Below, one piece after another: positions 2,426 through 48,780 of a DNA stretch of 62,124 nucleotides (position 1 is its first letter; each line of letters opens with the position of its first letter). The stretch covers positions 1-62,124 of the forward strand of contig CAZRED010000003.1 of the NCBI GenBank assembly GCA_964599405.1, in the 5' to 3' direction. The translations under genes were made by a program, and so were the position numbers. The notes under the pieces are model-generated. The model saw only the letters and a program-made list of their open reading frames with translations, had not been told where the DNA came from and ran no database searches. The stretch comes from an uncultured Candidatus Saccharibacteria bacterium (GTDB lineage Bacteria > Patescibacteriota > UBA1384 > 2-12-FULL-50-11).

Positions 2426-2506
2426 ACACTTGTGTTTACCTACTATGCACCTAGATTAGTAGGTAATCACAAGTGCCACCTGCTAAGCGCCAAGATTAGC
2501 CGATAA
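2414..2506 (+). repeat. three 40-41 bp-spaced copies of the mraY 3' end (ISR-stop)
   Basis: ATTAGTAGGTAA at 2414 and 2455, ATTAGCCGATAA at 2495; first copy is the left arm of hairpin agtaggtaaacac-tt-gtgtttacctact. Confidence 0.7.
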
Positions 2507-9167: not shown

Positions 9168-9250
9168 CAACTAGGATATTGCTAAGTGTTCGTTTACCGA
9201 ACACTATAGCAACTAGGACGTTGCTTAGTGACCGTTTACCGGACACTATA
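9167..9250. repeat. 42-bp tandem repeat x2, each unit with two hairpins
   Basis: gcaactaggatattgctaagtgttcgtttaccgaacactata / gcaactaggacgttgcttagtgaccgtttaccggacactata. Confidence 0.85.
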
Positions 9251-10942: not shown

Positions 10943-10984
10943 CAGTTTACGAAGCGGTTCGATAAAGGGTATCTTGCAACAAGT

Positions 10985-12274
10985 ATGGCGAAACCAAAAA
11001 ATATGTTCGTTTGTCTGAACTGCGATCGGTCGTTTGCCCGTTGGGCTGGACGCTGTCCGAACTGCGGTGAGTGGAACACCTTAACCGAAGAAAAGACCGG
11101 AGAACGGAGCAGTGAGTCGCTACCGGCTGAATTGGTGATGGTGGCCGACCTACCAAAGCAGCGGGTGGAACGACTAATCACCGGCAACATTGAGTTCGAC
11201 CGAGTGCTGGGCGGTGATGATCCGGGGGTAGTGCGTGGTTCGGTTGTGCTATTGTCTGGTAATCCAGGGGTAGGTAAAAGCACTTTACTACTGCAAATTG
11301 CGGCTGCCTTAAAAAAGTCGCTGTATTTTTCGGCCGAGGAATCACTACAGCAGCTAACGATTCGTTTTCAACGGCTCGGTATAACTTCACCGACGCTGAA
11401 ATTAAGTACCGAGCGCGATACTAGCCGGATTATTGCCGCTATTCAAAAGGAAAAACCGGATTTTGTGGTAATTGATTCAGTCCAAACTATTTACGACGAC
11501 GGCATTGCCGGTACGCCGGGTTCGCTTATCCAAGTTAGGGAGAATACTTGGCGACTCCAGCAATTTGCTAAAACCACTGACACTGCCATTTTCTTGGTTG
11601 GCCATGTGACCAAAGAAGGGGTAGTGGCCGGTCCAAAAAGCCTTGAGCACTTAGTTGACGTGGTCTTGTTTTTGGAGGGCGAGAAACAGACTGGCTTGCG
11701 GCTACTGCGCGTTGACAAGAATCGCTACGGGCCAACCGATGAGGTGGGAATCTGGCAGTTGCTAAAAAGTGGTTTCCAACCGGTTGACGACCCAGGCAAA
11801 CTATTTGCGAGTCTTTTGGGCAGCGACGTACCAGGGAGGGCATTAACAGTGGCTCTAGAGGGCAGTCGGTCGTTTTTGGTCGAGATCCAAGCTCTTGTTT
11901 CGCGGACCAGCTACGGCTATCCAAAGCGTGCCGCCCAAGGAATTGACCTTAATCGCCTCAACGTCCTGATTGCCGTTTTGGAGAATCGCCTAGAGCTACC
12001 GCTTAGTCAATACGATATTTACATTAATGTGGTCGGTGGATTTACCGTTAAAGACCCAGGGATTGATGTGGCCGTTGCAGCAGCAATTATTTCGGGGCTG
12101 ACCAAGCGTCCACTGGCCGACAAACTAGTAGTTGTTGGCGAAATTGGGCTACTAGGGGAAATCCGCCCACCAGCCGATCAAGAAAAGCGCAAAAAAGAAA
12201 TTAGTCGGTTAAAGTATCAAGCAACCGGAAAGATTAACTCTCTTAGCCAACTGAAACAGCTATTTTCGAAGTAG
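10985..12274 (+). CDS. radA: DNA repair protein RadA/Sms
   Basis: N-terminal C4 zinc finger, GNPGVGKST, IDSVQT, KNRYG, Lon-like C-terminus. Confidence 0.96.
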   Translation: MAKPKNMFVCLNCDRSFARWAGRCPNCGEWNTLTEEKTGERSSESLPAELVMVADLPKQRVERLITGNIEFDRVLGGDDPGVVRGSVVLLSGNPGVGKSTLLLQIAAALKKSLYFSAEESLQQLTIRFQRLGITSPTLKLSTERDTSRIIAAIQKEKPDFVVIDSVQTIYDDGIAGTPGSLIQVRENTWRLQQFAKTTDTAIFLVGHVTKEGVVAGPKSLEHLVDVVLFLEGEKQTGLRLLRVDKNRYGPTDEVGIWQLLKSGFQPVDDPGKLFASLLGSDVPGRALTVALEGSRSFLVEIQALVSRTSYGYPKRAAQGIDLNRLNVLIAVLENRLELPLSQYDIYINVVGGFTVKDPGIDVAVAAAIISGLTKRPLADKLVVVGEIGLLGEIRPPADQEKRKKEISRLKYQATGKINSLSQLKQLFSK

Positions 12275-16369: not shown

Positions 16370-17181
16370 TGGGTTATAAACGGGGGTTCACCCTAATTGA
16401 GGCGTTATCGGTAGTGGCGATTATTGGCATTTTAGTTTCGCTGGCAGTGTACGTGGTTACCCAAGCCCAACGCCAAGCTCGGGATACTAAGCGCAAATCC
16501 GACCTGGCGGCCATTTCCCAGGGGTTTGAGGCTCGATTCTTGGATAGAACTTGCAGCGATCAGGCGGTGGTTGGACAGTACCCTGGCAAAGCACTGTTGG
16601 ATGCTGACAGCGGAACTACCGGGAAAATGCTTTGGCATAAGGTTAGTGAGCTGTCCGGGTTAACCGACAACTGCAATCCGTTTAGTTACTATCTAGCTAA
16701 TGTTCCAACCGACTCACTTGGGGTTCAAAATCAGTACTATTTTAATCTTTCCGGTTCCAGCCTACCCGCCGAGCATTACCGCCTAGCTGCCCGGCTGGAA
16801 AAAGTCCCGTCAGATGCCCAATGGGAAGAAATTTGTCGGTTGAGCGACGTTTGGTCGGAGAATTTTTACGGCCAACCCTACGACGGCTGCGGCGGTGACA
16901 CAATCGCTAAATTCGGACGAGTGTTGTTGGCCGCCACCCTACCTGGACAAGGCACCGGTGGAACAGGCGGGACGGGCGGCACCGGCGGCACCGGTGGAAC
17001 AGGCGGCACCGGTGGCGGCACAGTACCGTGCGAGCCGACAGAAGTTGAAAGCCCACCCGGTTCGGGGAACTGTGTTCCAGGCGGTGGCGGTGAAGGCGGC
17101 GGTGGCGAAGGTGGTGGTGAAGGTGGCGGCGGCGGCCAAGAAGAGATACCACTACCTTACAACTACTACATTGGCCGTTGA
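16369..17181 (+). CDS. type IV pilin-like protein with Gly-rich low-complexity insert
   Basis: G|FTLIE prepilin site, ARDTKRKSDL helix; GTG/GEG repeats; ATG 16369 overlaps tyrS stop (alternative 16357). Confidence 0.9.
   Translation: MGYKRGFTLIEALSVVAIIGILVSLAVYVVTQAQRQARDTKRKSDLAAISQGFEARFLDRTCSDQAVVGQYPGKALLDADSGTTGKMLWHKVSELSGLTDNCNPFSYYLANVPTDSLGVQNQYYFNLSGSSLPAEHYRLAARLEKVPSDAQWEEICRLSDVWSENFYGQPYDGCGGDTIAKFGRVLLAATLPGQGTGGTGGTGGTGGTGGTGGTGGGTVPCEPTEVESPPGSGNCVPGGGGEGGGGEGGGEGGGGGQEEIPLPYNYYIGR
16951..17133 (+). repeat. coding low-complexity repeats (GTG)n and (GGGE)n
   Basis: ggcaccggtggaacaggcgg occurs twice; ggcggtggcgaaggtggtggtgaaggtggcggc. Confidence 0.85.
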
Positions 17182-17340: not shown

Positions 17341-18927
17341 ATGATTATTGGCCAACTACATCAGGCAATTCGCCAAGCGTTTATTCAAGCAATCGGCTCA
17401 CCGCCGCCGCAGTTTGTTATTGAGCCCGCCAAACGAACCTTTTTTGGTGATTTTTCTACCAATATTGCCATGGTGGCTGCCAACGAAACAGATGAAAATC
17501 CGGTGGCTTTAGCCCAAAAAATTGTCCAAAAAATGACAGCCAGTGAGGTTTTTAAATCGGTCAGCGTGGCCACCCCCGGCTTTATTAACTTCACAGTTAC
17601 TGATGAATATCTTCTGGAAGTAGTGCGGGCGATTATTCGCTCACCTGAAAGTTACGGCCGCAGCGATTTGGGTAAAGAAATTCGGGTGCTACTGGAGTTT
17701 GTCTCGGCAAACCCAACCGGTCCGCTGACGCTCGCTAATGGCCGCGGTGCTTTTGTTGGTGAAGCAATTGCTCGGGTATTAGAGCTATACGGCTGCACGG
17801 TGATGCGCGAGTACTACAGTAATGACCGCGGCAACCAAATCGTCTCATTGGGTAAAACAATCCTTGGTGAGCCGGGCGGAGAGTACGCTGGTAAGTATAT
17901 CGATGAATTAAAGAAGCGGGTTAAAGAGCCAACTGCCGAGGCGGCGGGGGAACAGGCAGCGGCAATTATTATGGAAGAAATGATAAAGCCAGTTCTGAAA
18001 CAAGTGGGCATAGACTTTCACCAGTTTTTCTCCGAGAAATCGCTCTTCAGCACTGGTGTTTACAAAAAAAACTTAGAGCTGCTGAAGTCGCGTGGGCTGG
18101 TTTACGTGGCTGACGGGGCGACTTGGCTAGCGACCACTCGATTTGGCGACGATCAAGACCGGGTGTTGGTGCGAACGGATGGCGCTGAAACTTACTTTGC
18201 CTCCGACATTGCCTACCATTCCTACAAAATTCAGCGCGGCTATCACCGGTTGATTAACGTCATGGGAGCCGATCATTTTACGTACAGCAAACAAATGACC
18301 ATGATCGTCGAAGGAGTGCTACGCGATCACTACATGTGGGGCGGCAAGCTCGATTGGGTGGTGACGCAAATTGTCCGGCTGATGAAAGATGGTGAGGAAG
18401 TGAAGATGTCCAAGCGAGCCGGCACCTACGTACCTCTGGACGAATTGTTGGAAGAAATTGGTCCAGACGTTACCAGATTCTTTTTCTTGAGTCGGAGTGT
18501 TGATGCCCACCTAGACTTTGACTTTAACTTAGCCAAATCAGCGACCAGCCAAAATCCGGTTTTTTACATCCAGTATGCATATGCCCGCATTAGCTCAATT
18601 TTTCGTCAATTTTCTAAAACCGATGATTTTGCCGTGCCAGAGAAAATAATGATTACCCACCCGGTCGAACGACGATTATTACTGCGGATTATTCAATTCC
18701 CCGATTTGGTGGAGGAGATTGCCGGAGATTTACAGGTTCACAAGCTAACTCACTACGCTCTCGCCTTAGCCACCGATTTACACGCTTTTTATGAACAATT
18801 GCGGGTTCAGGGTGAGCCGCCGGAGATTGCTCAGTCACGTTTGGCGATTCTGAAAGCGACCAGTCTTACTATTAAGAAAACCCTTGATCTCATAGGGGTT
18901 AGCGCCCCGTCGCGCATGTTACGCTAA
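17341..18927 (+). CDS. argS: arginine--tRNA ligase
   Basis: GDFSTN, EFVSANPTGPL, TYFASDIAYH, MSKRAG, YIQYAYARI. Confidence 0.96.
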   Translation: MIIGQLHQAIRQAFIQAIGSPPPQFVIEPAKRTFFGDFSTNIAMVAANETDENPVALAQKIVQKMTASEVFKSVSVATPGFINFTVTDEYLLEVVRAIIRSPESYGRSDLGKEIRVLLEFVSANPTGPLTLANGRGAFVGEAIARVLELYGCTVMREYYSNDRGNQIVSLGKTILGEPGGEYAGKYIDELKKRVKEPTAEAAGEQAAAIIMEEMIKPVLKQVGIDFHQFFSEKSLFSTGVYKKNLELLKSRGLVYVADGATWLATTRFGDDQDRVLVRTDGAETYFASDIAYHSYKIQRGYHRLINVMGADHFTYSKQMTMIVEGVLRDHYMWGGKLDWVVTQIVRLMKDGEEVKMSKRAGTYVPLDELLEEIGPDVTRFFFLSRSVDAHLDFDFNLAKSATSQNPVFYIQYAYARISSIFRQFSKTDDFAVPEKIMITHPVERRLLLRIIQFPDLVEEIAGDLQVHKLTHYALALATDLHAFYEQLRVQGEPPEIAQSRLAILKATSLTIKKTLDLIGVSAPSRMLR

Positions 18928-19005
18928 CCCCTTTCCAAAAACTCCGTTTTTGTAATAGGTGTTAGCGCTCCGTCGCGGATGTTGCGTGAAGACAGAAGCG
19001 TTTAA
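18892..19005 (+). repeat. in-frame, synonymously recoded duplicate of argS 3' end
   Basis: 18892-18924 and 18955-18987 both encode IGVSAPSRMLR; 5 differences, all synonymous third positions. Confidence 0.9.
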
Positions 19006-20914: not shown

Positions 20915-20924
20915 AAATTGAGTA

Positions 20925-21200
20925 TCAGTCGTAGTCGAGCCCACGAACGGCTTGCTCCTGTGCCCGATTAGCCTTGCCGCATCCAACGAATTGGCACCCA
21001 ACAATGTGTCTCTTATGTGTCCAGCCCCGACACAGGCGTATCGCCCAGATCCAAGCTAAAATTGTAAGACAGGTGGGTATCCTTCTGGGCCTACCAAGGT
21101 AGACCCTGATCGCTTAGCCGGTTGGCCAGCGCCCAAAGGGTAGATTCCCGTAGAAATCTGTAAGGACCAATTGTTGTAGCGTACAAGGCTACCGTCAATA
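20925..21200 (-). ncRNA. candidate structured RNA (family unidentified)
   Basis: ORF-poor GC-rich intergenic stretch with nested stems GCTTG/CAAGC, CCTGTGTC/GGCACAGG, GGTCTACC/GGTAGGCC. Confidence 0.35.
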
Positions 21201-21227
21201 TAACGACAACCAAACGAGTTTCAAGGG

Positions 21228-23784: not shown

Positions 23785-23840
<56 letters not shown>

Positions 23841-23856
<16 letters not shown>

Positions 23857-23905
23857 CGGTTTGTCTAGGGGAACGAGCGAACGCGAGTATCCCCGAAGAC
23901 GGCTC
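23841..23905 (+). repeat. 17-bp direct repeat of tRNA-Thr 3' end
   Basis: atccccgaagacggctc at 23841 and 23889. Confidence 0.9.
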
Positions 23906-23908
23906 TAG

Positions 23909-23992
23909 GCTGGGTTAACGAAGTGGTCAAACGTATCTGACTGTAAATCAGACGCCCTCGTGGCTTCGTAGGTTCGAATCCTACACCCAGCA
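23909..23992 (+). tRNA. tRNA-Tyr(GTA)
   Basis: GCTGGGT/ACCCAGC acceptor, TCTGA-CTGTAAA-TCAGA, long variable arm. Confidence 0.96.
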
Positions 23993-24144
23993 CTGGTCAA
24001 AATTTGGTCGTTGACCAAATTTTGGGCAGTATTGGAAAGGTCGAACCGACTGCTACAGCAGCAGGTTCGCTAGCGACTAATCCGCCGCTGGCGGAGAGGG
24101 AGCTTTCTGAAGCCCGCAGGGCTGAAGCCTCCTACACCCAGCAC
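23979..24144 (+). repeat. 15-bp direct repeat of tRNA-Tyr 3' end bracketing a palindrome-rich insert
   Basis: tcctacacccagcac at 23979 and 24130; insert has caaaatttggtc-gtt-gaccaaattttg and ccgccgctggcgg. Confidence 0.88.
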
Positions 24145-24147
24145 ATC

Positions 24148-24219
24148 GCCACCTTAGCTCAGTGGTAGAGCAGCTGTTTTGTAAACAGCAGGTCGTCGGT
24201 TCAAGTCCGACAGGTGGCT
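24148..24219 (+). tRNA. tRNA-Thr(TGT)
   Basis: GCCACCT/AGGTGGC acceptor, GCTGT-TTTGTAA-ACAGC. Confidence 0.96.
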
Positions 24220-24257
24220 CAACAAATTAGAAATTTTAAGGTACAATACATATTCAC

Positions 24258-24422
24258 ATGGCAAAGAAAAAAACCCGCGAACAAATTACGCTCGAATGTA
24301 CAGTCTGCAAAGAGCGTAATTACTACACCGAAAAAAACAAAACCAACAGCCCCAACCGGCTGGAGCTCAAAAAATTCTGCGACCGCTGCAAAAAAGTGAC
24401 TGCTCACAAAGAGAGCAAATAA
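24258..24422 (+). CDS. rpmG: 50S ribosomal protein bL33 (zinc form; not in ORF track, 54 aa)
   Basis: [54 protein letters not shown]. Confidence 0.96.
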
Positions 24423-24478
24423 CCTCGACGCTACCCGGACTTATTGGTAGCATTGTTAGGTGTATTTAGGAAAAATTT

Positions 24479-24549
24479 AGGGGCTTAGTTTAATGGTAAA
24501 ACGACGGTCTCCAAAACCGTTGACGCGGGTTCGATTCCCACAGCCCCTG
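24479..24549 (+). tRNA. tRNA-Trp(CCA)
   Basis: AGGGGCT/AGCCCCT acceptor, ACGGT-CTCCAAA-ACCGT; one C-A mismatch in T stem. Confidence 0.95.
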
Positions 24550-24655
24550 CGAATTATATGAGCAGGGCAAGGGAACGCTCGTTAGAGCGATTCCCACAGC
24601 CCCTGCGAATATGTGGGAAAGGCGTGGTGCGACTATCCCTGTCACCCCTGCAAAT
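24532..24655 (+). repeat. 23-bp direct repeat of tRNA-Trp 3' end plus a degenerate third copy
   Basis: cgattcccacagcccctgcgaat at 24532 and 24588; cgactatccctgtcacccctgcaaat at 24630. Confidence 0.9.
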
Positions 24656-24670
24656 TGTCAGCCGTCGGCG

Positions 24671-24700
24671 TTGACAACCGGTTTTTCCGGCAAGTATACT
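24671..24700 (+). promoter_or_regulatory. sigma70 promoter of pil cluster
   Basis: TTGACA-18 bp-TATACT; GGAGG RBS before TTG 24728. Confidence 0.7.
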
Positions 24701-24727: not shown

Positions 24728-25321
24728 TTGGAAAGTCACGACAAACAGCCAGTAGTACCGGCTCCGGCCGAAGATACGCAGGATCGTATCTCTTCGCTGG
24801 AAGACGCCTCAAAAACACTAAATAGCTTCGGGGTGATTATTTTCTACGTGGTGTTAGTCGAAATCGCCCTAATGTTTTTTCTTAATCTTTACCAAACCAG
24901 TCGCTACAAAACATTAAATACCGAGCTGGATACCCTTAGGGGGACCCTTAACTCCGTCGAGTACAGTACGCTTAATGCTCAAGTGGAAGAAGTGATTTCT
25001 GGTGCCGAAAAACTCGACATGGTTCTGGGGGCAAAAGTGAAATGGAGTAGTTTCTATACCCAGCTCAACGCCATCACGCCGAAAGATGTCAAACTTGGCA
25101 CCATTAACATTGGCAGCGACGGCTCCTTTAAGGCCGAGGGCGAAACCGCCAGCTTAACCAGCTTAGCTCGGGCGTTAGTCTCTTGGAACCAGGGAACAGT
25201 CTCCGTATCCACCCCATTTTCAACGATTAAGCTTAACTCCAACGGCTTTGTTGCCAAGGCCGGCGGCAAACGCGTTAGTTTTACCATTTCCGGCCAAATT
25301 AACTTGGGGAGGCTTCGCTGA
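24728..25321 (+). CDS. PilN-like type IV pilus assembly protein
   Basis: single TM, coiled coil, WSSFYTQLNAITPKDVKL; position before PilO-like gene. Confidence 0.72.
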   Translation: MESHDKQPVVPAPAEDTQDRISSLEDASKTLNSFGVIIFYVVLVEIALMFFLNLYQTSRYKTLNTELDTLRGTLNSVEYSTLNAQVEEVISGAEKLDMVLGAKVKWSSFYTQLNAITPKDVKLGTINIGSDGSFKAEGETASLTSLARALVSWNQGTVSVSTPFSTIKLNSNGFVAKAGGKRVSFTISGQINLGRLR

Positions 25322-25824
25322 TGGGCAAAATAAAAAAAGCCGGGCTACTTTTATTGTTGGCGGCCATTCTTGGTTGGTTTGCCGTCATCCGGCCGCAATT
25401 TAGTGCTTTCTCCCAAAACGCGACAAACGTCAAAGTCAAAAGCACGGAGGTCGCCTCCTACCAGCAACGTCTTGACGACTTACAAGCCATTAAAGCCCAG
25501 GGTGACAACGTTACCAAAACGCTAGAGTTACTCTACTTAGCCATGCCTAAATCCAGCCAAATTCCGGAAGTATTAGTGATGATTGAGGCGCTCGGTAGCC
25601 GGGCCGGAGTAGTGTTAGACGCCGCTACCGTTGGTACACCGACAGCCGGAGAAGTGCCAGTGTCGCTGTCATTCAGCGGTAATCTTGGCTCGGTCAGTAA
25701 TTTCTTAAACGCCATTAACGAAAACGTTCGAACGGCCATAGTTAAAAATCAGTCCATTACCTCTGAAGACGCCGGCTCAATGACTGTCAGTATCCAGTTG
25801 GGCTTAATTTTCCAGGGGGAATAA
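25321..25824 (+). CDS. PilO-like type IV pilus assembly protein
   Basis: N-terminal TM, coiled coil, MPKSSQIPEVL, SLSFSGNLGSVSNFLNAI. Confidence 0.8.
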   Translation: MGKIKKAGLLLLLAAILGWFAVIRPQFSAFSQNATNVKVKSTEVASYQQRLDDLQAIKAQGDNVTKTLELLYLAMPKSSQIPEVLVMIEALGSRAGVVLDAATVGTPTAGEVPVSLSFSGNLGSVSNFLNAINENVRTAIVKNQSITSEDAGSMTVSIQLGLIFQGE

Positions 25825-25832
25825 AGAATACG

Positions 25833-26099
25833 ATGAACAAATTCAAAGTAGAGTCGTTAATTGGTATGGGGCTGCTAACAGTCGCAATTTTGGGATTTAT
25901 TCTTAGTTTTGTGTTGAGCCTACCGAAGGGCGATGTGGTGACGGGTCGCGCCCAAGCACTACCGCCAATACCGCCCAATCTGTTTGCTAGCGACAACGAA
26001 CTAACCAAAAAAGTCCAAAGTTTAATCGCCCCACCTGGCGTACCGGTCACTCCCGACCCAGCTAACCTAGGGCGAACCAATGTATTTGAGAACTTTTAA
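25833..26099 (+). CDS. small membrane protein (PilP position)
   Basis: TM plus Pro-rich tail ending GRTNVF; between pilO and pilB. Confidence 0.55.
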   Translation: MNKFKVESLIGMGLLTVAILGFILSFVLSLPKGDVVTGRAQALPPIPPNLFASDNELTKKVQSLIAPPGVPVTPDPANLGRTNVFENF

Positions 26100-26102
26100 T
26101 GC

Positions 26103-28460
26103 ATGGCGTTAAAAGTTACCCAAAATCCGCCAGTTAAAGCATCGGGACGTCAATTCGTTGAATTTTTAGTCACCCGCGGGCATTTAAAAGACGGTTTTCG
26201 CTCCGTTTTAGGTGGGCGGGAACTTTGGCAAGTAGACCAGTATTTACTGGAGAAAAACCTCGTCTCCAAAGATCGGCTGCAACAGCTTTACGCCGACTAT
26301 TATGGTTTGCCGTTTATTCACATTGCCAACGTCGAAATACGCCCAGAGACTTTGTTATTAATCCCTAAAGACGTAGCGGAGAAATTTTTGGTTATTCCCT
26401 TCAAGCTAGTTGACCGGGAACTCTCGATTGCCATTGGCCGACCGGCGATGCTCCAGTCTTCAGCACCGCAAGCGCTACTGCAGTTGCGCCAACAAAAAGG
26501 GCTAGATATTCACTTGGCCGTTTCGCCGTTAGAAGAAGTACGGGCAGCGATTGAAAAAGCTTACAGTCCGGCTGCCGCGCCAGCTGCACCGCTGCCAGCC
26601 CCTGTCGAACCAACTACCGCCCACCCAGTTCAATCACTTAACAAACAAGACTTAATCAACGAGGTTGACCCGCGCCAAAAAACCGTCGATCTGACTAAGC
26701 TAAAAATACCCCAAGAAGTTTTAATGAAAATCCCGTTGACGGTGGCCAAAAAGTACAAAATTGTTGTCTTTGGTTCGAATTTGCAGCGCGGTCAGTATGA
26801 GCCGGCAATGATTCAGGTGGGTGTAGTTAATCCCAACGATCAGCACGTCAAAGAAATCTTGGGATATATCGAACAGAAAAACAAGATTCTTATCAATCGC
26901 TACTTAATTAGCGAGGAGTCGTTCCAGGCGGCGGTTGCCCACTATCCAAACATTCCAGAGGCAAAATCAGTTACCCCACCTTCACCGGTAGTCACTCCGA
27001 GCGCTGCCGTTCCGTCGGTGCCATCAACAGCGTCCGTTGCGCCACCATTACCAGCCCCACCCCCAGAAGTCACCGAAGGAATCGTTATTACAGAAGGTGA
27101 TATTACGAATCGCCCGTCAACTGATCTCTCAAACGTTGATGTCGCCAAAGAAGCCCAGCAGCGCGCCGACGACTTCGAGGACCAAGATTTAGATAAGTTG
27201 ATTCACCAACCGATCGTCGACACTAATGGTCTGGCGGGCGTTATCCGAACCGGCGCGGTGCCAGAAATTGTGGCGGCCACGCTGTTTTTGGGCATCCGCA
27301 TGAAAGCTAGTGATGTTCACCTGGAAGCTCAACGGAACGGTGTCCGGTTACGTTACCGCATCGACGGTATTTTGCACGACATCATCACGATGCCAAAATT
27401 TATGCACGCGCCGCTGGTTTCCCGCGTGAAAATTCTCTCCAAAATGAAGATTGACGAACAGCGTGTTCCCCAAGACGGCCGGTTTGACGTGATTATTGAT
27501 AAACGGCAGGTAGACCTGCGTGTCTCCACCCTTCCCACCGTTTTCGGTGAAAAAGTGGTAATGCGGCTGCTTGATAAATCGGCCGGGTTACTAACGCTTG
27601 AACAGATGGGCATTACCGAGGCCAATTTCGATACATTAATTGAAAACATCAACAAACCCTACGGAATTATCCTGGCAACTGGCCCAACTGGCTCGGGTAA
27701 AACCACTACGCTCTACGCCATCTTAAACCGCATCAGCAAGCCGGGCATCAATATTATCACCCTGGAAGATCCGGTTGAGTACGAACTTCCCGGCGTTAAC
27801 CAAGCGCAAGTCAAGCCGCAGATTGGCTTTAATTTTGCCGACGGGCTCCGTTCCGTGCTACGCCAAGATCCGAACGTCATTATGGTCGGTGAAGTGCGCG
27901 ACCTAGAAACGGCGGCCATGGCCACCCACGCGGCGCTCACTGGCCATTTAGTACTTTCAACGCTCCATACTAATGATGCGGCCGGCGCTTTGCCGCGGAT
28001 GATTAATATGGGTGTTGAGCCGTTTTTAATTACTTCTTCGGTTAATGCTGTCATAGGCCAACGGTTAGTCCGGCGGATTTGTCCAGATTGTCGGGAAAAA
28101 ACCACCATTCCGCCGGCTGTTAAAGATTTCGTTAACAAACAGCTCGATCAGGTTCCTTCCGGTCAGCTCAAAGACCTAAACCTGGAGCAGTTAATTTTCT
28201 ATCACGGTAAGGGCTGTCCGAACTGTACTAACGGCTACCGCGGCCGAATCGGGATTTTTGAGGTGTTGGCGATGAACGAGAAAATCGAGGATTTAGCGAT
28301 TAACAAGGCACCGTCGTCGGATATTAAGAAAGCGGCCGTTGAGGGGGGAATGATTACGATGATTCAGGACGGCTTTATTAAAGCTCTCAAAGGCATTACC
28401 ACGGTGGATGAAGTGATGCGCGTTACCACCGCTTCAATTAAAGACGCGCCACAGGAGTAG
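26103..28460 (+). CDS. pilB: type IV pilus extension ATPase PilB/GspE with tandem N-terminal domains
   Basis: ASDVHLE, GPTGSGKTTT, LRQDPNVIMVGEVRD, HLVLSTLHTN, CPDC/CPNC zinc site. Confidence 0.93.
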   Translation: MALKVTQNPPVKASGRQFVEFLVTRGHLKDGFRSVLGGRELWQVDQYLLEKNLVSKDRLQQLYADYYGLPFIHIANVEIRPETLLLIPKDVAEKFLVIPFKLVDRELSIAIGRPAMLQSSAPQALLQLRQQKGLDIHLAVSPLEEVRAAIEKAYSPAAAPAAPLPAPVEPTTAHPVQSLNKQDLINEVDPRQKTVDLTKLKIPQEVLMKIPLTVAKKYKIVVFGSNLQRGQYEPAMIQVGVVNPNDQHVKEILGYIEQKNKILINRYLISEESFQAAVAHYPNIPEAKSVTPPSPVVTPSAAVPSVPSTASVAPPLPAPPPEVTEGIVITEGDITNRPSTDLSNVDVAKEAQQRADDFEDQDLDKLIHQPIVDTNGLAGVIRTGAVPEIVAATLFLGIRMKASDVHLEAQRNGVRLRYRIDGILHDIITMPKFMHAPLVSRVKILSKMKIDEQRVPQDGRFDVIIDKRQVDLRVSTLPTVFGEKVVMRLLDKSAGLLTLEQMGITEANFDTLIENINKPYGIILATGPTGSGKTTTLYAILNRISKPGINIITLEDPVEYELPGVNQAQVKPQIGFNFADGLRSVLRQDPNVIMVGEVRDLETAAMATHAALTGHLVLSTLHTNDAAGALPRMINMGVEPFLITSSVNAVIGQRLVRRICPDCREKTTIPPAVKDFVNKQLDQVPSGQLKDLNLEQLIFYHGKGCPNCTNGYRGRIGIFEVLAMNEKIEDLAINKAPSSDIKKAAVEGGMITMIQDGFIKALKGITTVDEVMRVTTASIKDAPQE

Positions 28461-28512
28461 CTTTGGCAACGACAAAAAATATTAGTACACTGGGAATTGA
28501 GATGGAGGGAAC

Positions 28513-29582
28513 CCATGGTTGAGGCAATGACCACCGAGATGAAGCAGCTACTCGATTACGCCATCGAGAAGGGTTCGAGCGACTTGCATATTACGGTGGG
28601 GCTACCACCAATGATTCGCATTGACGGCAAACTACTGCCGATTCAAGACGCTGGCGTTGTTACGCCGGACGCTGCCCAACGGCTGTTGGTGAGCATAATG
28701 AACCAAGATCAAATGGAGCGCTTGCAGCAACGCCGCGAGCTGGACTTCTCTTTCGGCTACCAAAAAATGCGTTTTCGTACCAATGCTTTCTACCAAAAGG
28801 GCAACATTGGGGCCGCGCTACGCCTTATCCCTATGGCCATCAAAAAGATGGAGGAATTGGGTGTGCCGCCGATACTCGAGCGCTTTACTGAACCGAGCCA
28901 AGGCTTCGTGGTGATTACCGGGCCAACTGGTCACGGTAAATCAACGACTCTGGCGGCGCTAATTCAAGGGATTAACGCCAAACGGGCCGAACATATTATT
29001 ACTATTGAAGATCCGATTGAGTATGTCTTCGAGCACGACAAATCAATGATTGTCCAGCGGGAAGTTGGCTCCGACACCAACTCTTTCTCCCGAGCCCTCC
29101 GTTCGGCGCTGCGTGAAGACCCGAATGTGATTCTGGTTGGGGAGATGCGCGATTTAGAAACAATCGAAGCGGCCCTAACGCTAGCGGAAACCGGCCACCT
29201 GGTTTTCACCACTCTCCACACCAACTCCGCTGCCCAAACCGCTGACCGCATTATCGACGTTTTCCCGCCGCACCAACAGCAACAGGTGCGGATGCAGTTG
29301 GCTAACGTGCTACTTGGCGTTGTTTCGCAGCGTCTCCTACCACGTGTTCAGGGTGGACGAGTGCTCGCCACCGAAATAATGGTGGCCAATTCGGCCGTTC
29401 GCAACACTATTCGCGAAGGCAAAACTCATCAGTTACCTAATATTATTCAAACTTCGGCTTCCGAAGGTATGATCTCGCTCGATAAAGTTTTGGCCGAGTT
29501 GGTTAGCCGGGGCGAAATCACCATTGATACAGCGCTATCTTGGGCAATCGACCCCAAGGCCTTTAAGATGATGGTCTACTAG
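28513..29582 (+). CDS. pilT: retraction ATPase PilT
   Basis: SDLHITVG, GPTGHGKSTT, LREDPNVILVGEMRD, TLHTNSA. Confidence 0.95.
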
Positions 29583-29593
29583 CTAGTCTAACC

Positions 29594-30667
29594 ATGGCTA
29601 AACGTAACGGCTTCAGCGTCAATCGCTTACTCGGACGGGTTTCTTTCCAGGAGAAATCATTCGTTGCTCGCCAGCTGTCGGTGATGCTGGATGCTGGACT
29701 GCCCCTGACCCAAGCGATGCGCTCGCTTTCCGAGCAAACCGACAATCCGGTTTTGGAGAAAGTGCTCTCGCAGATTTTGCGCGATTTAGAAAACGGCTAC
29801 CGTCTTTCGGAAGCCGTCAAAAAACATCCCCAGATCTTTAACAACGTTTTCTACTCTGTGGTAGCGGCCGGGGAATCGTCCGGTAAGCTCGACGTCGCCT
29901 TAAACCTGTTGGCCGACGAAATGGAGCGCGATTTCGGCTTCCGCAGCAAGGTTGTTGGGGCGATGCTCTACCCAGCTTTTATTGTGGTGGCGATGTTTAT
30001 TGTTGGGGTAATTATGGTTACCCGCATTGTCCCAGCACTGGAATCGGTCTTTAGCGAAGCCAATATCGAGCTGCCTTGGACCACTCGAACGGTGGTTTGG
30101 GTAACTAATAGCATTATTGGCTATTGGTATGTTTACATTGTGCTGATCGCGCTGGCGATTTACTGGTTCACCCGCTACTCCGGCACGGCTGAAGGTAAAC
30201 GCTCAATTAACAACTTTATTATGCGCATTCCCGCCATCGGCAGCCTCTTTACCAACCTGGAGATGGCCCGAATGACCAGAATATTGGGAATCATGATTCA
30301 AGCCGGTGTGCCGATTATTCAGGCCTTAGATTCAGTAGCCTTGGTGATGGATAGTATAATTTATCGGGAAATACTCCAAATTGTTGCTAGGAACGTGGAA
30401 CGTGGCGCGCCGATTTCCCAAACGTTGGTAAAATTTGAGCAAATTCCTAGCACCGTTACCGAAATGATGGCCGCCGGCGAAAAAACCGGCAAATTAGAGC
30501 TAGTACTTTCCAAATTAGCGGACTTTTACGAAACCCAAACTAATCAATCGGTCAAAAATCTGGCCGCCCTCATTGAACCAGTGGTATTTGTGATTGTCGG
30601 GCTCGGTGTGGCCTTTATCGTTTTCTCGATTATTGTACCAATCTACAATCTTTCAGCCGCGTTCTAG
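29594..30667 (+). CDS. pilC: platform protein PilC/GspF
   Basis: RQLSVMLDAGLP, AGESSGKLD, YPAF, AGEKTGKL, LIEP. Confidence 0.94.
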   Translation: MAKRNGFSVNRLLGRVSFQEKSFVARQLSVMLDAGLPLTQAMRSLSEQTDNPVLEKVLSQILRDLENGYRLSEAVKKHPQIFNNVFYSVVAAGESSGKLDVALNLLADEMERDFGFRSKVVGAMLYPAFIVVAMFIVGVIMVTRIVPALESVFSEANIELPWTTRTVVWVTNSIIGYWYVYIVLIALAIYWFTRYSGTAEGKRSINNFIMRIPAIGSLFTNLEMARMTRILGIMIQAGVPIIQALDSVALVMDSIIYREILQIVARNVERGAPISQTLVKFEQIPSTVTEMMAAGEKTGKLELVLSKLADFYETQTNQSVKNLAALIEPVVFVIVGLGVAFIVFSIIVPIYNLSAAF

Positions 30668-30795
30668 AAAAAATTAGCACTCTTGACATAGTAGCCCAGC
30701 AGAGGTGTTATATAGGTAATGGCTTTCACCGATCTTACAAATGTGAGGGGCGGTCGACGAAAGTTATCTTCATTAATTTCCCTAAAGGAGGGATT

Positions 30796-31326
30796 ATGAA
30801 ACTGAAAATGAATATGAAAAAGGGCTTCACCCTTATTGAGCTGTTGGTGGTTATTGCCATTATCGGTATCTTGGCGGCTTTAATTATCGTTTCGCTTTCG
30901 GGCGCACGACAAAAAGCCACTGATACGCAGTACAAGAACAATATTCGCAACATCACGACAGCTCTGGAGCAGTACGCCCTTGACCAAACAACCCCAGCAT
31001 ACCCAGGGAACGCTTCGGCTGGAACACATCAAGTTATTGCTGCGACAACGGTTATGGCGGGTGGCGATACGTTCGGGGACTTCTTGAGTCCATACCTTGC
31101 TGGTGGCGACGGTTCGCAAGCTTGGGATTATGACAGCCAAATAGCTCTTTATGAAGCGGGTGCCTCTAACCTGTCTTGGGCAGCTTTTGTTCAGCTGTTA
31201 AGCAGTACGGACAAGGGTTCCGGAACGATTGATGGTGCAGCAAATATAACCGTCAATAGTATTGACTTTGTCGCAACCGGTTTGTCGGCTGGTGAACGCG
31301 CTTTCGCCGTTTCTGGTCCGAACTAG
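30796..31326 (+). CDS. major type IV pilin candidate
   Basis: G|FTLIELLVVIAIIGILAA; strong AAGGAGG RBS; own terminator. Confidence 0.92.
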   Translation: MKLKMNMKKGFTLIELLVVIAIIGILAALIIVSLSGARQKATDTQYKNNIRNITTALEQYALDQTTPAYPGNASAGTHQVIAATTVMAGGDTFGDFLSPYLAGGDGSQAWDYDSQIALYEAGASNLSWAAFVQLLSSTDKGSGTIDGAANITVNSIDFVATGLSAGERAFAVSGPN

Positions 31327-31341
31327 ATTTGACTAGCTAGT

Positions 31342-31376
31342 CAAAAAGAAAACCCCGTTCTGGGGTTTTTCTTTTT
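31342..31376. terminator. bidirectional intrinsic terminator
   Basis: aaaaagaaaacccc-gttct-ggggtttttctttt. Confidence 0.85.
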
Positions 31377-31402
31377 GAGGTGATTATGGGTAAGATATAA
31401 CT

Positions 31403-32188
31403 ATGTTATCTGGGGGGGTAATCGCAGCCTTTGTCTTTGGGCTTATCTACGGCTCGTTTCTGAACGTGGTAATCCTGCGCTGGGACGACTGGATGTCAAT
31501 CATTACCGGTCGCTCCAGCTGTCCGAGCTGCAAGAATAACCTTCGCTGGTTTGATATGGTGCCGGTATTAAGCTTTTTAACGCTAGCCGGCCGCTGTCGT
31601 TACTGTCAGAAACCAATTTCCTGGCAGTACCCAGTTGTAGAACTTGGTACAGCAATATTGGTGGCAGTGGGGTACCAAACCATATTTTCTGCCGGCTTAA
31701 CCGACGCCACTGGCGCTGTAATCGCCTTTTTAGCCTATTTGGTGGTAGTTGGCCTATTGGTCAGCGTGTTCTTTCACGATCTCTACGAAATGCTGGTTCC
31801 GGATGTGATGGGCTATATTCTACTAGTGGCCGCCGCGGTTTTTGGGGTGATTTACTACGGCTGGCTCGATACGCTTTACGGGCTGCTGGTGGGGGTGGTG
31901 CCAATTGCGCTGCTGGTATATCCGTCGGGCGGCCGGTGGATGGGTGAAGGCGACGTCAAAATTGCTGCCGGAATCGGAGCATTTGTTGGTTGGCCGGTGG
32001 CGATAGTTTTCCTGCTGCTATCGTTCTTCTTGGGTGGACTCTACGGCGTTTTCGGACTAACCGTTGGAAAAGTGAAAATGAAAACAGCAGTGCCGTTTGC
32101 GCCGTTTCTAATTGTCGGGGGGCTACTGGCCTTTTTCTACGGACAAACACTAATTGCGTGGTATTTTAATAGTGGCTATGGGTTATAA
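31403..32188 (+). CDS. pilD: prepilin peptidase
   Basis: YGSFLNVVI, RSSCPSC, CRYC, GEGDVK, VPFAPF. Confidence 0.94.
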   Translation: MLSGGVIAAFVFGLIYGSFLNVVILRWDDWMSIITGRSSCPSCKNNLRWFDMVPVLSFLTLAGRCRYCQKPISWQYPVVELGTAILVAVGYQTIFSAGLTDATGAVIAFLAYLVVVGLLVSVFFHDLYEMLVPDVMGYILLVAAAVFGVIYYGWLDTLYGLLVGVVPIALLVYPSGGRWMGEGDVKIAAGIGAFVGWPVAIVFLLLSFFLGGLYGVFGLTVGKVKMKTAVPFAPFLIVGGLLAFFYGQTLIAWYFNSGYGL

Positions 32189-32816
32189 GCGACGAGGCTA
32201 CACCTTACTGGAAGTACTGGTTACCACGGCGATTATCGGCTTGTTAATCGGCCTGTTGCTGCCCAACATTGATCGCTCGCTCGATAAAAACAATATTTCC
32301 AATGATATCGACCTGCTTAAGGCTAAAATCGAAGAAGTTCGGCTGCTTTCCGGCTCTACCCAGCAAGACGACGTGTCCAGTGCCACCGGTGGCGTAACTA
32401 GCGACGAAACGGGCTACTACGGCATTGTCATTCCATCTGGACAGGTGGGCTATCTGGGAATTGTCCGGATTTCTTACCCACTAGACGAACTTTCTAACAG
32501 TCCAACCTGGTGCGATATTGACGGACAAGCAGGCGTGATTGCTCAAACCACCAACGACAAGGGCGACTGCCTGATCGAAAGAGTGGCCTTAAGTAGCGGT
32601 GTTACCCTAGCCGATAACGCCACCGACCAAATAATTGCTTTTCGTGTCCCGGCCCAGCGGCTGGTCCGGATTATCGATGGGGCTGGGGGCTGGACCGAAG
32701 AACCGCCGCGGTTCGATAATCCATTTCTTTTTTCATTGACATATCCCGGCGTCAAAGCGAAAGTAAAGTTAGATGACTACTCGGGGAGGGTAACGGTGCA
32801 ATATGTACAAGATTAA
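32178..32816 (+). CDS. minor pilin (FimT/FimU-like position)
   Basis: G|YTLLEVLV prepilin site. Confidence 0.85.
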   Translation: MGYKRRGYTLLEVLVTTAIIGLLIGLLLPNIDRSLDKNNISNDIDLLKAKIEEVRLLSGSTQQDDVSSATGGVTSDETGYYGIVIPSGQVGYLGIVRISYPLDELSNSPTWCDIDGQAGVIAQTTNDKGDCLIERVALSSGVTLADNATDQIIAFRVPAQRLVRIIDGAGGWTEEPPRFDNPFLFSLTYPGVKAKVKLDDYSGRVTVQYVQD

Positions 32817-33582
32817 AAATAGCTTCACCCTAATTGAGGTGTTGGTGGCCGGTAGCGTGCTGTTTATTGTTTCGGCGGCAGTGGTTGGTTTAAGTAACTC
32901 GATTATCCAGGGTACAGCGCTGACTACCGATGAAGCTGTTGCTAACCGCCTTTCTACCGAAGGGTTGGAAGTTGTCACCAAAATTCGCGACGACCAACTT
33001 AAACAAGCCTCTTACCAATCCGGACGATTTGTTTGGTTTGACCCGGCAGAAACCAGCGCTGGCTACGGTTGGTACATGCTCGAGGAAGAAACTGCCAACC
33101 CTAACTCTTGGCAACTGCAACCACAAAGCGCCCTGCCGAACGTCATCAACACTGCTGATGGAACCTTTGACGTTGCCCAAGCCCAACATCTTCCAGTCGG
33201 AACAATCGATTTTTACCGGTTAATCTGTGTTGAGGCGGTAGCGGGCAGCGACAACCAAGCTGACGGATCCTTGAACTGTAATACCCGCTCAAACCCCGGC
33301 GATCCGCCAATTATCGTTAACGACGGCGACCGTCAGTTGGCGGTACTAACAAATAACTGTTTTTCGGACGGCGCCAACGCCAATGAGTATAAAGAAGATA
33401 TTTACTGCCAGTTCACAGAAACTAGTATTAATCGCAACAGAATCACTACTACTAACGAAAAAATCATTCCCGACGGCAACGCCGTGAAGGTGCGTAGCGT
33501 GGTGGTTTGGAACGACAAAGGTCGTTACCGCTCTAGTGCCACGGCCACGCTGTTTACTAACTGGCAGTCGGTAGTTGACTAA
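32803..33582 (+). CDS. minor pilin (PilV-like position)
   Basis: S|FTLIEVLVA prepilin-like site. Confidence 0.82.
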   Translation: MYKIKNSFTLIEVLVAGSVLFIVSAAVVGLSNSIIQGTALTTDEAVANRLSTEGLEVVTKIRDDQLKQASYQSGRFVWFDPAETSAGYGWYMLEEETANPNSWQLQPQSALPNVINTADGTFDVAQAQHLPVGTIDFYRLICVEAVAGSDNQADGSLNCNTRSNPGDPPIIVNDGDRQLAVLTNNCFSDGANANEYKEDIYCQFTETSINRNRITTTNEKIIPDGNAVKVRSVVVWNDKGRYRSSATATLFTNWQSVVD

Positions 33583-34289
33583 TGTTTGTTGGTAAAAAAC
33601 GGGGCTTCACCCTAATTGAATTATTAGTTGCCGTATCAATTTTTTCCGGGATTATTGTTTTGACTCTTGGTGCATTTGCCCGCAGCGCTAGCTCGTCCCA
33701 AAAAAGCTCGGCGATCCGGGAGCGAACCGAAGCGGCTCGAACAATTGTCGACCGAATCGGTAACGACGTTCAATATCTTTACACCGATCAGCCGTTTATG
33801 GCGACCACTAACGAATGCAATAGCTCAACCACTCCAGTTCAAGCCTTGGGCCTGTATTTCAATGAAAGTAGCTGTCTGTTTTTAGTCCTGGAATATCCTG
33901 ATTCAGCCGAACTAGTAGCGAAACGCTATCTACGTACCAATCGGTTAATTGGTAATGTGGTATACAAAACACTTTCACTAGAAGAATCTAGGGAGTGTCG
34001 GATTGAAGCTGGGGCGCTATCTTGCGATGATCGTGATACTTCCCGCTTGGGGACAATAATTGGCGAAAAATACCTACTGGCCAGCGAAAACGAGCCCTCA
34101 TACCTAGCCGAACCACTCTTTTCGGGAATCACGCCGCTGCAGGCAGCTAGCGCTAACCCCCCAACTACGGCGATCATGCGTCTCAATGTTATTGTTAAGG
34201 GCACTGACGTCGCCAACGAGCCCTGCAAGCTCGATCCTCCGTCCAGCCACTGTTACACCATTAAAACGTCATTTGTTGTTGGGAATTAG
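33582..34289 (+). CDS. minor pilin (PilW-like position)
   Basis: G|FTLIELLVA. Confidence 0.85.
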   Translation: MFVGKKRGFTLIELLVAVSIFSGIIVLTLGAFARSASSSQKSSAIRERTEAARTIVDRIGNDVQYLYTDQPFMATTNECNSSTTPVQALGLYFNESSCLFLVLEYPDSAELVAKRYLRTNRLIGNVVYKTLSLEESRECRIEAGALSCDDRDTSRLGTIIGEKYLLASENEPSYLAEPLFSGITPLQAASANPPTTAIMRLNVIVKGTDVANEPCKLDPPSSHCYTIKTSFVVGN

Positions 34290-35255
34290 ATGCGATACGC
34301 TATTGATATGCACAACGGGGGGGAACGACGGGGTAGCGCTTTGATCATGGTGATGTTAGTTGTCGCCAGCATCACTACTATTGTCTTTGCCACCCAACGG
34401 ATCGCCCTGGTGCAATTCAGCCAATCGGTTCGCGAAGAAGATAACTTGGCCGCCTACTACGCTGCCAAAGCCGGCGTTGAAGATGGCTTGCTGCGCTATC
34501 ATTTTGACCGCAACGTCCAAACCGAGAATGATTCAATCTTCCGTTTCGATCTGACAGCGGCCGCTACACCGGATTCCGCCGGTACAGTTCCGTACGAAAT
34601 CCCCGCCAACACGCCAATTACCGACGGCGTTGACGGTGACTTTGACCCGAGCCATCAATACTACGATTTAGCAATATCTTACAAAACCAAAACGATTAAT
34701 TTTAATGAAAACGGCAATCCGGTTTTCAGCACTGACTTTGCCGTTGCGACTGACGACACACTAACCTTAACCGGTTTTCCCATTTCTAATACGCCGTACT
34801 ACCTGCGTTACGCCTTTAAGTTTGATTCAGCTTGTGCCAACTTGTCGCAGGCTCGGATTACCTTACAGCAGGTTATTACAGACAGTAGTGGTAACCAGTC
34901 TTCCAGCCAGGTGCTAGTAGAGTATTCGCCTAGCCTGCCGGACTTTACCTACGATTCGAGCGCTAATGTTGCCAATTTGCCAATCCGTACACAAGCTGGG
35001 GATTTAGTCTCGTCGGTGCGGATTCGAGCCTACTACTGCGGGTTCCAATACGCCTTCGCTACCAGCCAAGAAATTGATGGCCGAGGTGGCGATACGGACG
35101 ACCCAGAGTTTGACAGCCTGATTAGCGAAATTCTTTCGACCGGTTACTTCGGTGGCGCCAAGCGCACCCTGGTGGCGGCAATAAACCGTCAAACCGGTGA
35201 TTTAATCGGCATCTTTGACTTCTTGCTCTATTCGGGTGGTAACATTCGCCGTTAA
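34290..35255 (+). CDS. PilX-like minor pilin
   Basis: RG|SALIMVM lacking E5, AYYAAKAGVEDGL. Confidence 0.82.
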   Translation: MRYAIDMHNGGERRGSALIMVMLVVASITTIVFATQRIALVQFSQSVREEDNLAAYYAAKAGVEDGLLRYHFDRNVQTENDSIFRFDLTAAATPDSAGTVPYEIPANTPITDGVDGDFDPSHQYYDLAISYKTKTINFNENGNPVFSTDFAVATDDTLTLTGFPISNTPYYLRYAFKFDSACANLSQARITLQQVITDSSGNQSSSQVLVEYSPSLPDFTYDSSANVANLPIRTQAGDLVSSVRIRAYYCGFQYAFATSQEIDGRGGDTDDPEFDSLISEILSTGYFGGAKRTLVAAINRQTGDLIGIFDFLLYSGGNIRR

Positions 35256-42667: not shown

Positions 42668-42750
42668 AATATATATTGTGGCTGGTACACCACTAAGCAA
42701 TCTCCTAGTTGCTATTGAATTGAAAATATTTTCGCTACAATTATTCAAAC

Positions 42751-48751: not shown

Positions 48752-48780
48752 CCAAACTAGATCCAACCAACTATCCTAAT

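Follow-up and report, generated by a model that had tools for sequence, protein, structure and literature searches.

Several genes in a 62,124-nt stretch of an uncultured Candidatus Saccharibacteria bacterium (contig CAZRED010000003.1 of assembly GCA_964599405.1; hereafter the window) are followed by a second copy of their own 3' end. Each of these modules consists of the gene end (A1), a spacer of about 30 nt and a second end copy (A2), sometimes with further units, and each is specific to its locus. They stand behind tRNA-Thr(GGT), tRNA-Tyr and tRNA-Trp and behind the protein genes mraY, ftsQ and argS. Compared with related genomes, the sites are insertions or duplications, the number of units varies, and the downstream copies (relics) can hold the end of another allele. 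The modules look like scars of gene-end turnover, not like tiny mobile islands. The explanation we favour, with confidence somewhat short of even, is that an incoming allele with its own end and a short stem-loop was joined ahead of the resident end, followed by slippage.

For comparison, we used the tRNA cluster from about 12 related metagenome-assembled genomes (MAGs) or contigs and the dcw-recJ-argS region from three more loci. The sources of the homologues are labelled Patescibacteria, Saccharimonadales or Berkelbacteria, and even the "close" relatives share only 78-80% DNA identity with the window in argS. A scan for close repeats (14-mers with at most one mismatch, 20-170 nt apart) returned 16 clusters, against 1.55 +/- 1.2 in first-order Markov shuffles. 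With coding low-complexity sequence excluded, all clusters with a period of 63 nt or less lie at gene 3' ends (mraY, ftsQ, argS, Thr, Trp), and so does the tRNA-Tyr pair with its period of 151 nt. Near the dprA/topA junction, a pair at 39835-39851 (138-nt period) makes up the sole further non-repetitive cluster. The coding low-complexity repeats at 16951-17135 (Gly-rich, with 9-, 18- and 27-nt periods, in a pilin-like gene) and 48675-49336 (Ala/Ser-rich, in an unannotated open reading frame, ORF) are unrelated to the gene-end modules.

The repeat modules are not an assembly artefact, because an independent k=31 assembly of the same sample, a permafrost metagenome, reproduced the Thr, Tyr, Trp and ftsQ arrangements without differences and MAGs from other samples hold homologous modules. 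Our view of the population is that given by assembled contigs. Among the contigs of the sample, a single joint connects 23847 with 24147 through short sides of 27 nt and probably reflects the tRNA array of another organism; none was placed at the sites as a further genomic copy, by a method that is insensitive to 40-nt matches.

The window carries five tRNAs, called with ARAGORN and Rfam, and Thr(GGT), Tyr and Trp have no encoded CCA. All features of the cluster described here lie on the plus strand. The last 17 nt of tRNA-Thr(GGT) (23785-23857; Rfam 66.2 bits; A1 at 23841-23857) recur at 17 of 17 positions after a 31-nt spacer (23858-23888), and this copy (23889-23905) ends 3 nt before tRNA-Tyr(GTA) (23909-23993). 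Likewise, the last 15 nt of tRNA-Tyr (23979-23993) return in full after 136 nt (23994-24129) as a copy (24130-24144) that ends 3 nt before tRNA-Thr(TGT) (24148-24220). The latter has no end copy behind it and is followed by the rpmG leader and rpmG (24258-24422). At tRNA-Trp(CCA) (24479-24550), which we call type N, copy A1 (24532-24554) extends 4-5 nt beyond the gene and is matched at 23 of 23 positions by A2 (24588-24610) after a first spacer of 33 nt (24555-24587). A second spacer of 22 nt and a third, 65% identical copy (24633-24655) complete the array (24611-24655), which amounts to 2.4 units; Thr and Tyr have one extra copy each. In all three tRNAs the 3' half of the T loop contains the start of the repeat, which continues through the discriminator base and extends past it by 1 nt (Thr, Tyr) or 5 nt (Trp). 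The tRNA-Trp of the window is unusual in its D arm (GTTTAATGGTAAAAC), and its T stem contains a C-A mismatch; relatives have either this or the canonical type at that place.

A first-pass annotation of this DNA had described the three repeats with these lengths and spacings, their attL/attR-like geometry and a cargo too small to encode anything. Each of these observations held, and none of the three spacers contains an ORF.

The same cluster in related genomes shows what becomes of such modules. The Thr(GGT) spacer is homologous at the orthologous place in five genomes (the window, L089, L002, L092 and L010), and a sixth variant is present in another sample. The module occurs there although the tRNAs are not always arranged alike: the window and L089 have GGT-Tyr-TGT, the other genomes TGT-Tyr-GGT. 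In its consensus structure, 3 of 14 pairs are changed on both sides; in L089, the copy shares a C-to-T change with the T loop of the tRNA, and the spacer arm shows the compensating change from G to A, so pairing between spacer and copy has been maintained.

In three of the five genomes the copy differs from the end of the tRNA beside it. The differences amount to 4 of 17 positions in L002 and L092. The L002 relic with its flank matches the tRNA end of L091 at 25 of 27 positions and its own tRNA at 17 of 27, and the L092 relic matches the tRNA end of the window at 17 of 17 positions and its own at 14 of 17. In both genomes it is the whole tRNA that belongs to another allele, the 5' acceptor strand included, and not the 3' part alone. 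A comparable pattern appears at tRNA-Trp, of which the clade has two kinds, types N and O. The window combines a type N gene and one type N copy with a third copy that is nearer to type O (20/23 against the type O end of L008, 17/23 against its own tRNA). In L002, two complete and identical 63-nt units begin with that genome's own, different Trp end, giving at least three end copies and maybe more inside a run of Ns. This run (L002 5976-6085) and the contig end of L001 fall in the tRNA-Trp array, and that MAG contains the region on two of its contigs; probably the array either interrupts assembly or differs within the population.

Further modules stand behind Thr(TGT) in L008 and behind tRNA-Tyr in L014, where a perfect 21-nt copy follows after 127 nt, and L011 holds a 35-nt 3' relic of another tRNA-Thr(TGT) allele. 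L091, L003 and others are free of modules, and many relatives with the same tRNAs carry none. Judged from these comparisons of sequence, the tRNA module is heritable, patchy, expandable and sometimes coupled to a foreign tRNA allele.

Considering their geometry, the repeat pairs could be read as the attL and attR of an integrated element that later lost nearly all of its cargo. The repeats do span the T loop to the tRNA end like the T-loop-type att sites that Williams reportedly described in 2002, the downstream copies behave as displaced resident ends, and small selfish genes sit in the tRNA cluster of relatives (a nuclease in L092, an ORF that is GIY-YIG-like by eye in L011, a group I intron-like insert in L091). 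Their small ORFs, however, lie at other junctions. None of the 12 related loci has kilobase-scale cargo or a large island at the module positions; there is either no insert or the same short spacer. The large islands in relatives that, according to the first-pass annotation, would mark the modules as simple island remnants were thus not found, and the tyrosine recombinase that it proposed to look for did not turn up either: a Pfam scan of 38 window ORFs between about 19 and 62 kb, 15 of which have no match at all, revealed no integrase, transposase, RAYT or Cas domain. In addition, independent deletions should not cluster at 22-35 nt, the finding of 0, 1 or 2 units with homologous spacers fits tandem copying and not decay, and the exchange of whole tRNAs in L002 and L092 is not that of a 3' part alone. 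Since neither an integrase nor cargo was found, spacer sizes cluster tightly and the number of units varies, the island explanation is the weakest of those considered, and we regard it as highly improbable.

Protein-gene ends behave alike and contribute codon evidence. The first-pass annotation had pointed to small inserts at argS and mraY, and both exist (27 and 29 nt), with a third such site behind ftsQ. At argS (module at 18892-19005, plus strand), the 36-nt functional end (18892-18927) is copied after a 27-nt spacer as a relic end (18955-18990) with a relic stop codon at 19003-19005, which adds 63 nt compared with L092/L097, L094 and L096, where there is no duplication. The relic reads ...SRMLREDRSV*, and its stop codon overlaps that of the neighbouring gene, which is encoded on the other strand; this is the ancestral arrangement. 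Therefore, the extra 63 nt (the new 36-nt end and 27 nt) lie upstream of the old end. Most argS homologues end in a short variable tail after ...SRM[VIL][RK]. The argS spacer (within 18925-18957) is 27 nt long, a multiple of 3, and in frame, and read-through of the TAA would enter the relic end and its stop; the in-frame length is probably a coincidence. Upstream of argS in L096 (17033-17200), a spacer contains about three repeats of a 55-nt unit that is absent from the window.

At mraY (2414-2506, plus strand), the functional 12-nt end ATTAGTAGGTAA (2414-2425) is followed by a 29-nt spacer, an identical copy ATTAGTAGGTAA (2455-2466), a 28-nt spacer and a last copy ATTAGCCGATAA (2495-2506). 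L096 has a single end, L095 and L097 have one extra unit and the window has two, so that the range is 0, 1, 2. The last copy is of the ancestral codon type: its Ser-Arg codons are AGC CGA (AGC CGN type), those of the functional end are AGT AGG, and this change is matched in the opposite arm, where CGGCT became CCTACT.

The two argS copies are 83% identical, and orthologues across MAGs 78-80%. Over the two copies at protein genes, 10 sense codons differ, all of them synonymously, in addition to one stop-for-stop difference (TGA/TAA). Under a local duplication with a neutral relic, this synonymous-only pattern has a probability of about 1e-4 overall and of 0.01 for argS alone. Consequently, the copies resemble two alleles that accumulated differences while each was still coding and that recently came to lie side by side.

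These observations can be accommodated by a sequence of steps. We infer that the first event at each site was the arrival of DNA that carried a functional allele together with the 3' end of that allele and the initial few tens of bases of the stem-loop behind it. The incoming piece would have been joined just upstream of the resident end without replacing it, and the resident end would have been displaced downstream as a relic. The likely route would be recombination with DNA from a diverged lineage, homologous on the gene side and by short homology or illegitimate on the other; in a compact genome, only junctions that duplicate sequence would survive, and not those that delete it. The two direct repeats render the resulting module unstable: units are gained and lost, presumably by slippage, and homogenised with the gene end; 0, 1, 2 and at least 3 units are seen among relatives. 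Modules can also pass between lineages by homologous recombination with the gene end as one arm, thereby creating mismatched pairs of tRNA allele and relic allele. Finally, the spacer arm and the downstream copy pair in a stable hairpin, whose pairing may be kept by selection or by template switching. The presence of competence genes in the window (a type IV pilus set, DprA, RadA, RecJ and RecR) supports this scenario of gene-end turnover.

Several points weigh against it. A donor lineage was found for no spacer. A stretch of 25 kb contains six sites, although illegitimate joins are expected to be rare, and it is not obvious that random joins would produce a spacer mode of about 30 nt. The tRNA copies of the window are identical and therefore carry no allele signal, so that a simple local duplication explains them equally well. 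The third Trp copy fits type O only modestly better than its own tRNA, and the mraY comparisons in three genomes are not independent. Moreover, sliding-window identity along argS showed no switch of affinity at the junction (relatives 78-80% to the left, 63-65% to the right), a comparison that is uninformative because the relatives are too distant.

The origin of the spacers bears on the main competitors of gene-end turnover. At most sites, in relatives as in the window, they measure 22-35 nt, in line with the length mode anticipated by the first-pass annotation; the duplicated ends measure 4-36 nt over all sites and 15-28 nt in the tRNA modules. Searches of about 200 kb (the window and the fetched relatives) with blastn-short and with covariance model R1, described below, found no second copy of the tRNA, mraY or argS spacers, and these share no sequence among themselves. 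We rejected the possibility that the spacers are decayed 5' parts of a plain tandem duplication, as in-register and semi-global alignments with upstream sequence were not significant except for the second units, which are tandem copies of the first. An origin as inverted copies of local sequence was rejected as well, except for mraY unit 1; at argS, Thr, Trp and Tyr, upstream or inverted local copies gave p = 0.2-0.98 for the primary spacers. Homology between the 136-nt Tyr spacer of the window and the 127-nt Tyr spacer of L014 was unconvincing, and the window Tyr spacer showed no significant similarity to its flanks or, by blastn-short, to any of the fetched relatives, including L089 with its 540-nt insert. 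Ectopic integration of CRISPR spacers (neo-CRISPR) was also rejected: the duplications span 4-36 nt, the spacers are complementary to the repeat, and no Cas domain occurs in the scanned window ORFs.

The exception at mraY gives some substance to de novo replication errors, that is, local template switching and slippage at hairpin-prone ends, with selection in a compact genome keeping only those events that leave the gene intact. Within mraY unit 1, positions 2427-2445 are a 19/20 inverted copy (reverse complement) of the gene end and its flank (p < 0.003), with a perfected stem and a loop flipped from CACAAGTG to CACTTGTG, the signature of a template switch (PMC5453318, PMC8794818), and unit 2 resembles unit 1 (p = 0.002). 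In addition, the second units are simple tandem copies, and a recent local event fits the perfect tRNA repeats. However, the argS, Thr, Trp and Tyr spacers could be recognised neither as decayed upstream sequence nor as inverted copies, and that the copies diverged by synonymous changes only speaks against a local duplication with a neutral relic. A human-chimpanzee survey, moreover, did not observe those orders of switching from which a direct duplication on the flanks would result (PMC5453318). We therefore consider replication errors an unlikely source of the modules as a whole.

The first-pass annotation had also noted that the inserts of the Thr and Trp modules supply an arm that pairs with the duplicated end, and folding bore this out. 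For Thr, the arm GTCT..GGGGA and the downstream copy pair with marginal support (z = -1.8; -19.1 kcal/mol), and for Trp the arm CAGGGC..GGGAACGCTC pairs with copy A2 (z = -3.1). At tRNA-Tyr, an inverted repeat with 23-nt arms of 83% complementarity folds into a long hairpin (23987-24035) whose 5' arm starts within the 3' end of the tRNA; the spacer folds as a string of hairpins, and 150 nt of the 3' trailer folded together gave z = -4.3. None of the module hairpins of Thr, Tyr and Trp was picked up by a consensus scan for terminators. The scan's sole plus-strand site, a terminator-like hairpin at 24655-24677 with a tail of Ts, comes after the third Trp copy, which places the repeat modules within the 3' trailer of tRNA-Trp; it overlaps a promoter-like site (24671-24700) for pilus genes.

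Pairing of this kind might mean that the modules are tRNA-like minihelices under selection, functional RNAs acting as an RNase P or RNase Z signal, as a substrate for CCA addition or as a decoy against invasion by the trailer. Such a role would be compatible with any origin. The Thr(GGT) hairpin is indeed kept in five genomes with some compensatory changes, and the Thr and Tyr copies end exactly 3 nt before the next tRNA, as a tRNA would in the array. In folding predictions, the acceptor and T arms of tRNA-Trp are disrupted by the spacer when the copy is left out. The same effect is absent for Thr, however, and the hairpins of the modules have no T-loop motif and loops of 4-17 nt. At permissive thresholds, Rfam scored only the four tRNA genes and gave no significant match for the inserts. 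Furthermore, many relatives have these tRNAs but no modules, the copy departs from the tRNA end in three of the five Thr(GGT) genomes, and the same geometry is found behind protein genes. A selected minihelix thus appears quite improbable to us, and the predicted hairpin, in the 3' trailer or between tRNAs, is probably at most a structural, processing or insulating stem-loop and no canonical terminator.

The site behind ftsQ is of another kind, as it belongs to a dispersed family of double hairpins. This family comprises TA-flanked elements of about 40 nt in six copies, four in the window and two in L092. The first part consists of the head ATAG and hairpin 1 (TAGCAA-CTAGGAKA-TTGCTA), the second of hairpin 2 (8-bp stem, 5-nt loop). 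Between copies, the sequence of this second stem has changed completely while its pairing has been kept (AGTGTTCG/CGAACACT vs AGTCGGCA/TGCCGACT), which amounts to full covariation. Two tandem 42-nt units (9165-9206 and 9207-9248, plus strand; 86% identical; spacer 29 nt) lie at the TA of the ftsQ stop codon, directly behind the gene. The distance from the ftsQ stop to the recJ ATG is 5-6 nt in relatives, and the window has 84 nt more. A further copy (42676-42714, minus strand) is located downstream of recR in opposite orientation and scored about 55.4-55.5 bits with the covariance model; a weaker one (38688-38735, plus strand) upstream of dprA reached 23.6 bits (covariance model R1, E = 5e-4). 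The copies in L092 lie at 9886-9927 and at 9494-9535, the latter 5 nt behind tRNA-Pro. Empty sites are known for ftsQ in three relatives (L095, L096 and L097) and for both L092 copies in the window. The final 3-5 nt of several elements repeat the bases to the left of the target. The double hairpin may be a very small, REP/MITE-like mobile element of Patescibacteria.

The window stretch from tRNA-Pro to the M50 peptidase gene (20915-21227) and L092 9615-9885 share about 300 nt of strongly conserved non-coding sequence, which suggests a structured RNA, possibly on the minus strand; Rfam gave no match for 20915-21227, even at E = 1 or below.

Whether all modules descend from elements of this sort is the question behind a further explanation, in which tiny non-autonomous hairpins of the REP/MITE kind insert behind genes, carry or regenerate the target end, and have the tRNA, mraY and argS modules as old subfamilies. 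That a real TA-flanked, ATAG-headed family exists, with a fully covarying hairpin 2, three sites empty in the other genome and copies right behind ftsQ and recR and close to tRNA-Pro, speaks for it, as do the repeated target bases. The mraY insert of L095, 38 nt from the TA of the stop codon to a second TA with an ATAGC..GCTAT hairpin, can be added to these. Nevertheless, covariance model R1 found nothing at the tRNA, mraY and argS modules, even with filters off, and their spacers are single-copy in about 200 kb. The tRNA modules are patchy in presence, and the Thr repeat contains no TA. Duplications of 12-36 nt match no known transposase, no transposase or RAYT domain occurs in the scanned window ORFs, and the Thr(GGT) spacer is vertically inherited in five genomes. 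As a general account, micro mobile elements are in our judgement unlikely, although they retain appreciable weight.

The first-pass annotation had offered two general accounts, a micro-integrative element family and a recurrent duplication of 3' ends. The double-hairpin family partly vindicates the former: dispersal and presence/absence polymorphism support it for the ftsQ insert, whereas the tRNA inserts, with no shared sequence and a Thr(GGT) spacer inherited in five genomes, do not behave as copies of one such family, and a 30-nt duplex could not integrate as a circle. A recurrent gene-end duplication fits the empty argS and ftsQ sites, the 0, 1 or 2 mraY units and the at least three end copies at a relative's tRNA-Trp.

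To place the modules in their genomic context, we checked the other genes up to about 28 kb by NCBIfam; the remaining dcw-cluster genes are named from the precomputed annotation of relatives only. These genes are housekeeping genes. An exact look-up of L33 gave no recorded entry. A full natural-transformation kit is contained in this single 62-kb stretch (24728-35255, 38681-39805, 9257-12274 and 42038-42667), including pilus ATPases, a platform protein, a prepilin peptidase and several pilins as well as DprA, RadA, RecJ and RecR. The tRNA cluster of relatives contains other insertions. An ORF in L092 (12604-13011) encodes a PD-(D/E)XK nuclease (PF11645, E = 1e-27), and one in L011 (about 2150-2370) is GIY-YIG-like by eye only; both may be free-standing genes of the homing type. 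L002 holds an ORF of 223 aa (5237-5908) with a weak helix-turn-helix match (E = 0.004) and L089 one of 128 aa (1005-1391) with no match. In L091 (3912-4204), the anticodon loop of tRNA-Tyr contains a group I intron-like insert of about 210 nt, and ARAGORN misses this tRNA. On account of these nuclease-like and other ORFs and the intron, the tRNA cluster appears to be a hot spot of breakage and exchange. The SegB nuclease of phage T4, located in a tRNA gene cluster, is a precedent for nuclease-associated exchange (PMC2330249).

None of the known systems with which we compared the modules fits all of their features. The nearest tested precedent for a tRNA-anchored repeat is the tyrV repeat: in the E. 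coli sequence NC_000913.3, as checked here, the tyrT/tyrV-tpr locus has 3.1 copies of a 178-bp unit behind tRNA-Tyr, starting with the last 19 nt of the tRNA. As in the window, a tandem unit opens with the last bases of the tRNA, and partial 3' ends recur in the trailer. The E. coli unit, however, is 178 nt long compared with 45-63 nt here, it holds a small ORF and a small RNA, and it represents a single locus and not a genome-wide habit. We know of no complementary, minihelix-forming arm at tyrT/tyrV-tpr. The att sites of tRNA-integrating islands and prophages resemble the modules in a repeat from the T loop to the tRNA 3' end and in a downstream copy that is a displaced resident end. They differ from the modules, where no integrase and no cargo were found, unit number varies, whole tRNA alleles are swapped, and protein-gene ends with duplications of 4-36 nt behave in the same way.

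In REP/BIME and MITE elements, too, hairpins of some 40 nt stand directly after genes, at times as tandem copies, and the ftsQ type is likewise dispersed, with an ATAG head and empty sites. By contrast, the tRNA, mraY and argS spacers are single-copy and locus-specific, the scanned window ORFs lack a RAYT or transposase domain, and long target duplications are not a feature of REP or MITE elements. Gene 3' ends are also replaced by incoming DNA with an end of its own, through free-standing nuclease genes in organelles, through T4 SegB in the tRNA gene cluster (PMC2330249) and through homology-facilitated illegitimate recombination in transformable bacteria. Here the likeness lies in a new functional end upstream and an old end downstream, in copies that differ synonymously like alleles, and in the nuclease ORFs and the intron of the same tRNA cluster in relatives. 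The modules differ in having only about 30 nt between the ends and no nuclease gene at the sites, and transformation or homing would be a putative route. Template-switch mutations, which create or perfect hairpins (PMC5453318, PMC8794818), are matched by the perfected stem and flipped loop of mraY unit 1 and by clusters of compensatory-looking changes in the modules, but most spacers are not detectably templated locally, and a flanking direct duplication is an unusual outcome.

A broader idea would unite these observations. Patescibacteria might carry gene-end modules of 40-60 nt, recombinase-free hairpins that copy themselves behind gene ends and take along or regenerate the end of the target, through polymerase template switching or transformation with short fragments; the TA-flanked double hairpin would then be the active, recognisable subfamily and the tRNA, mraY and argS modules older, locus-adapted members. 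We hold this to be improbable. If true, few known mobile units would be as small, and streamlined genomes would have in these modules a general source of 3' stem-loops.

For annotation, the modules imply that copies of tRNA ends do not prove the integration of an island and that programs which search for att sites can be led astray by relic ends. If the modules are indeed scars of gene-end turnover, they would be readable junctions of recombination between lineages, in which both the end of the imported allele and the former resident allele are visible, and recombination and the turnover of tRNA genes would become measurable straight from metagenomes.

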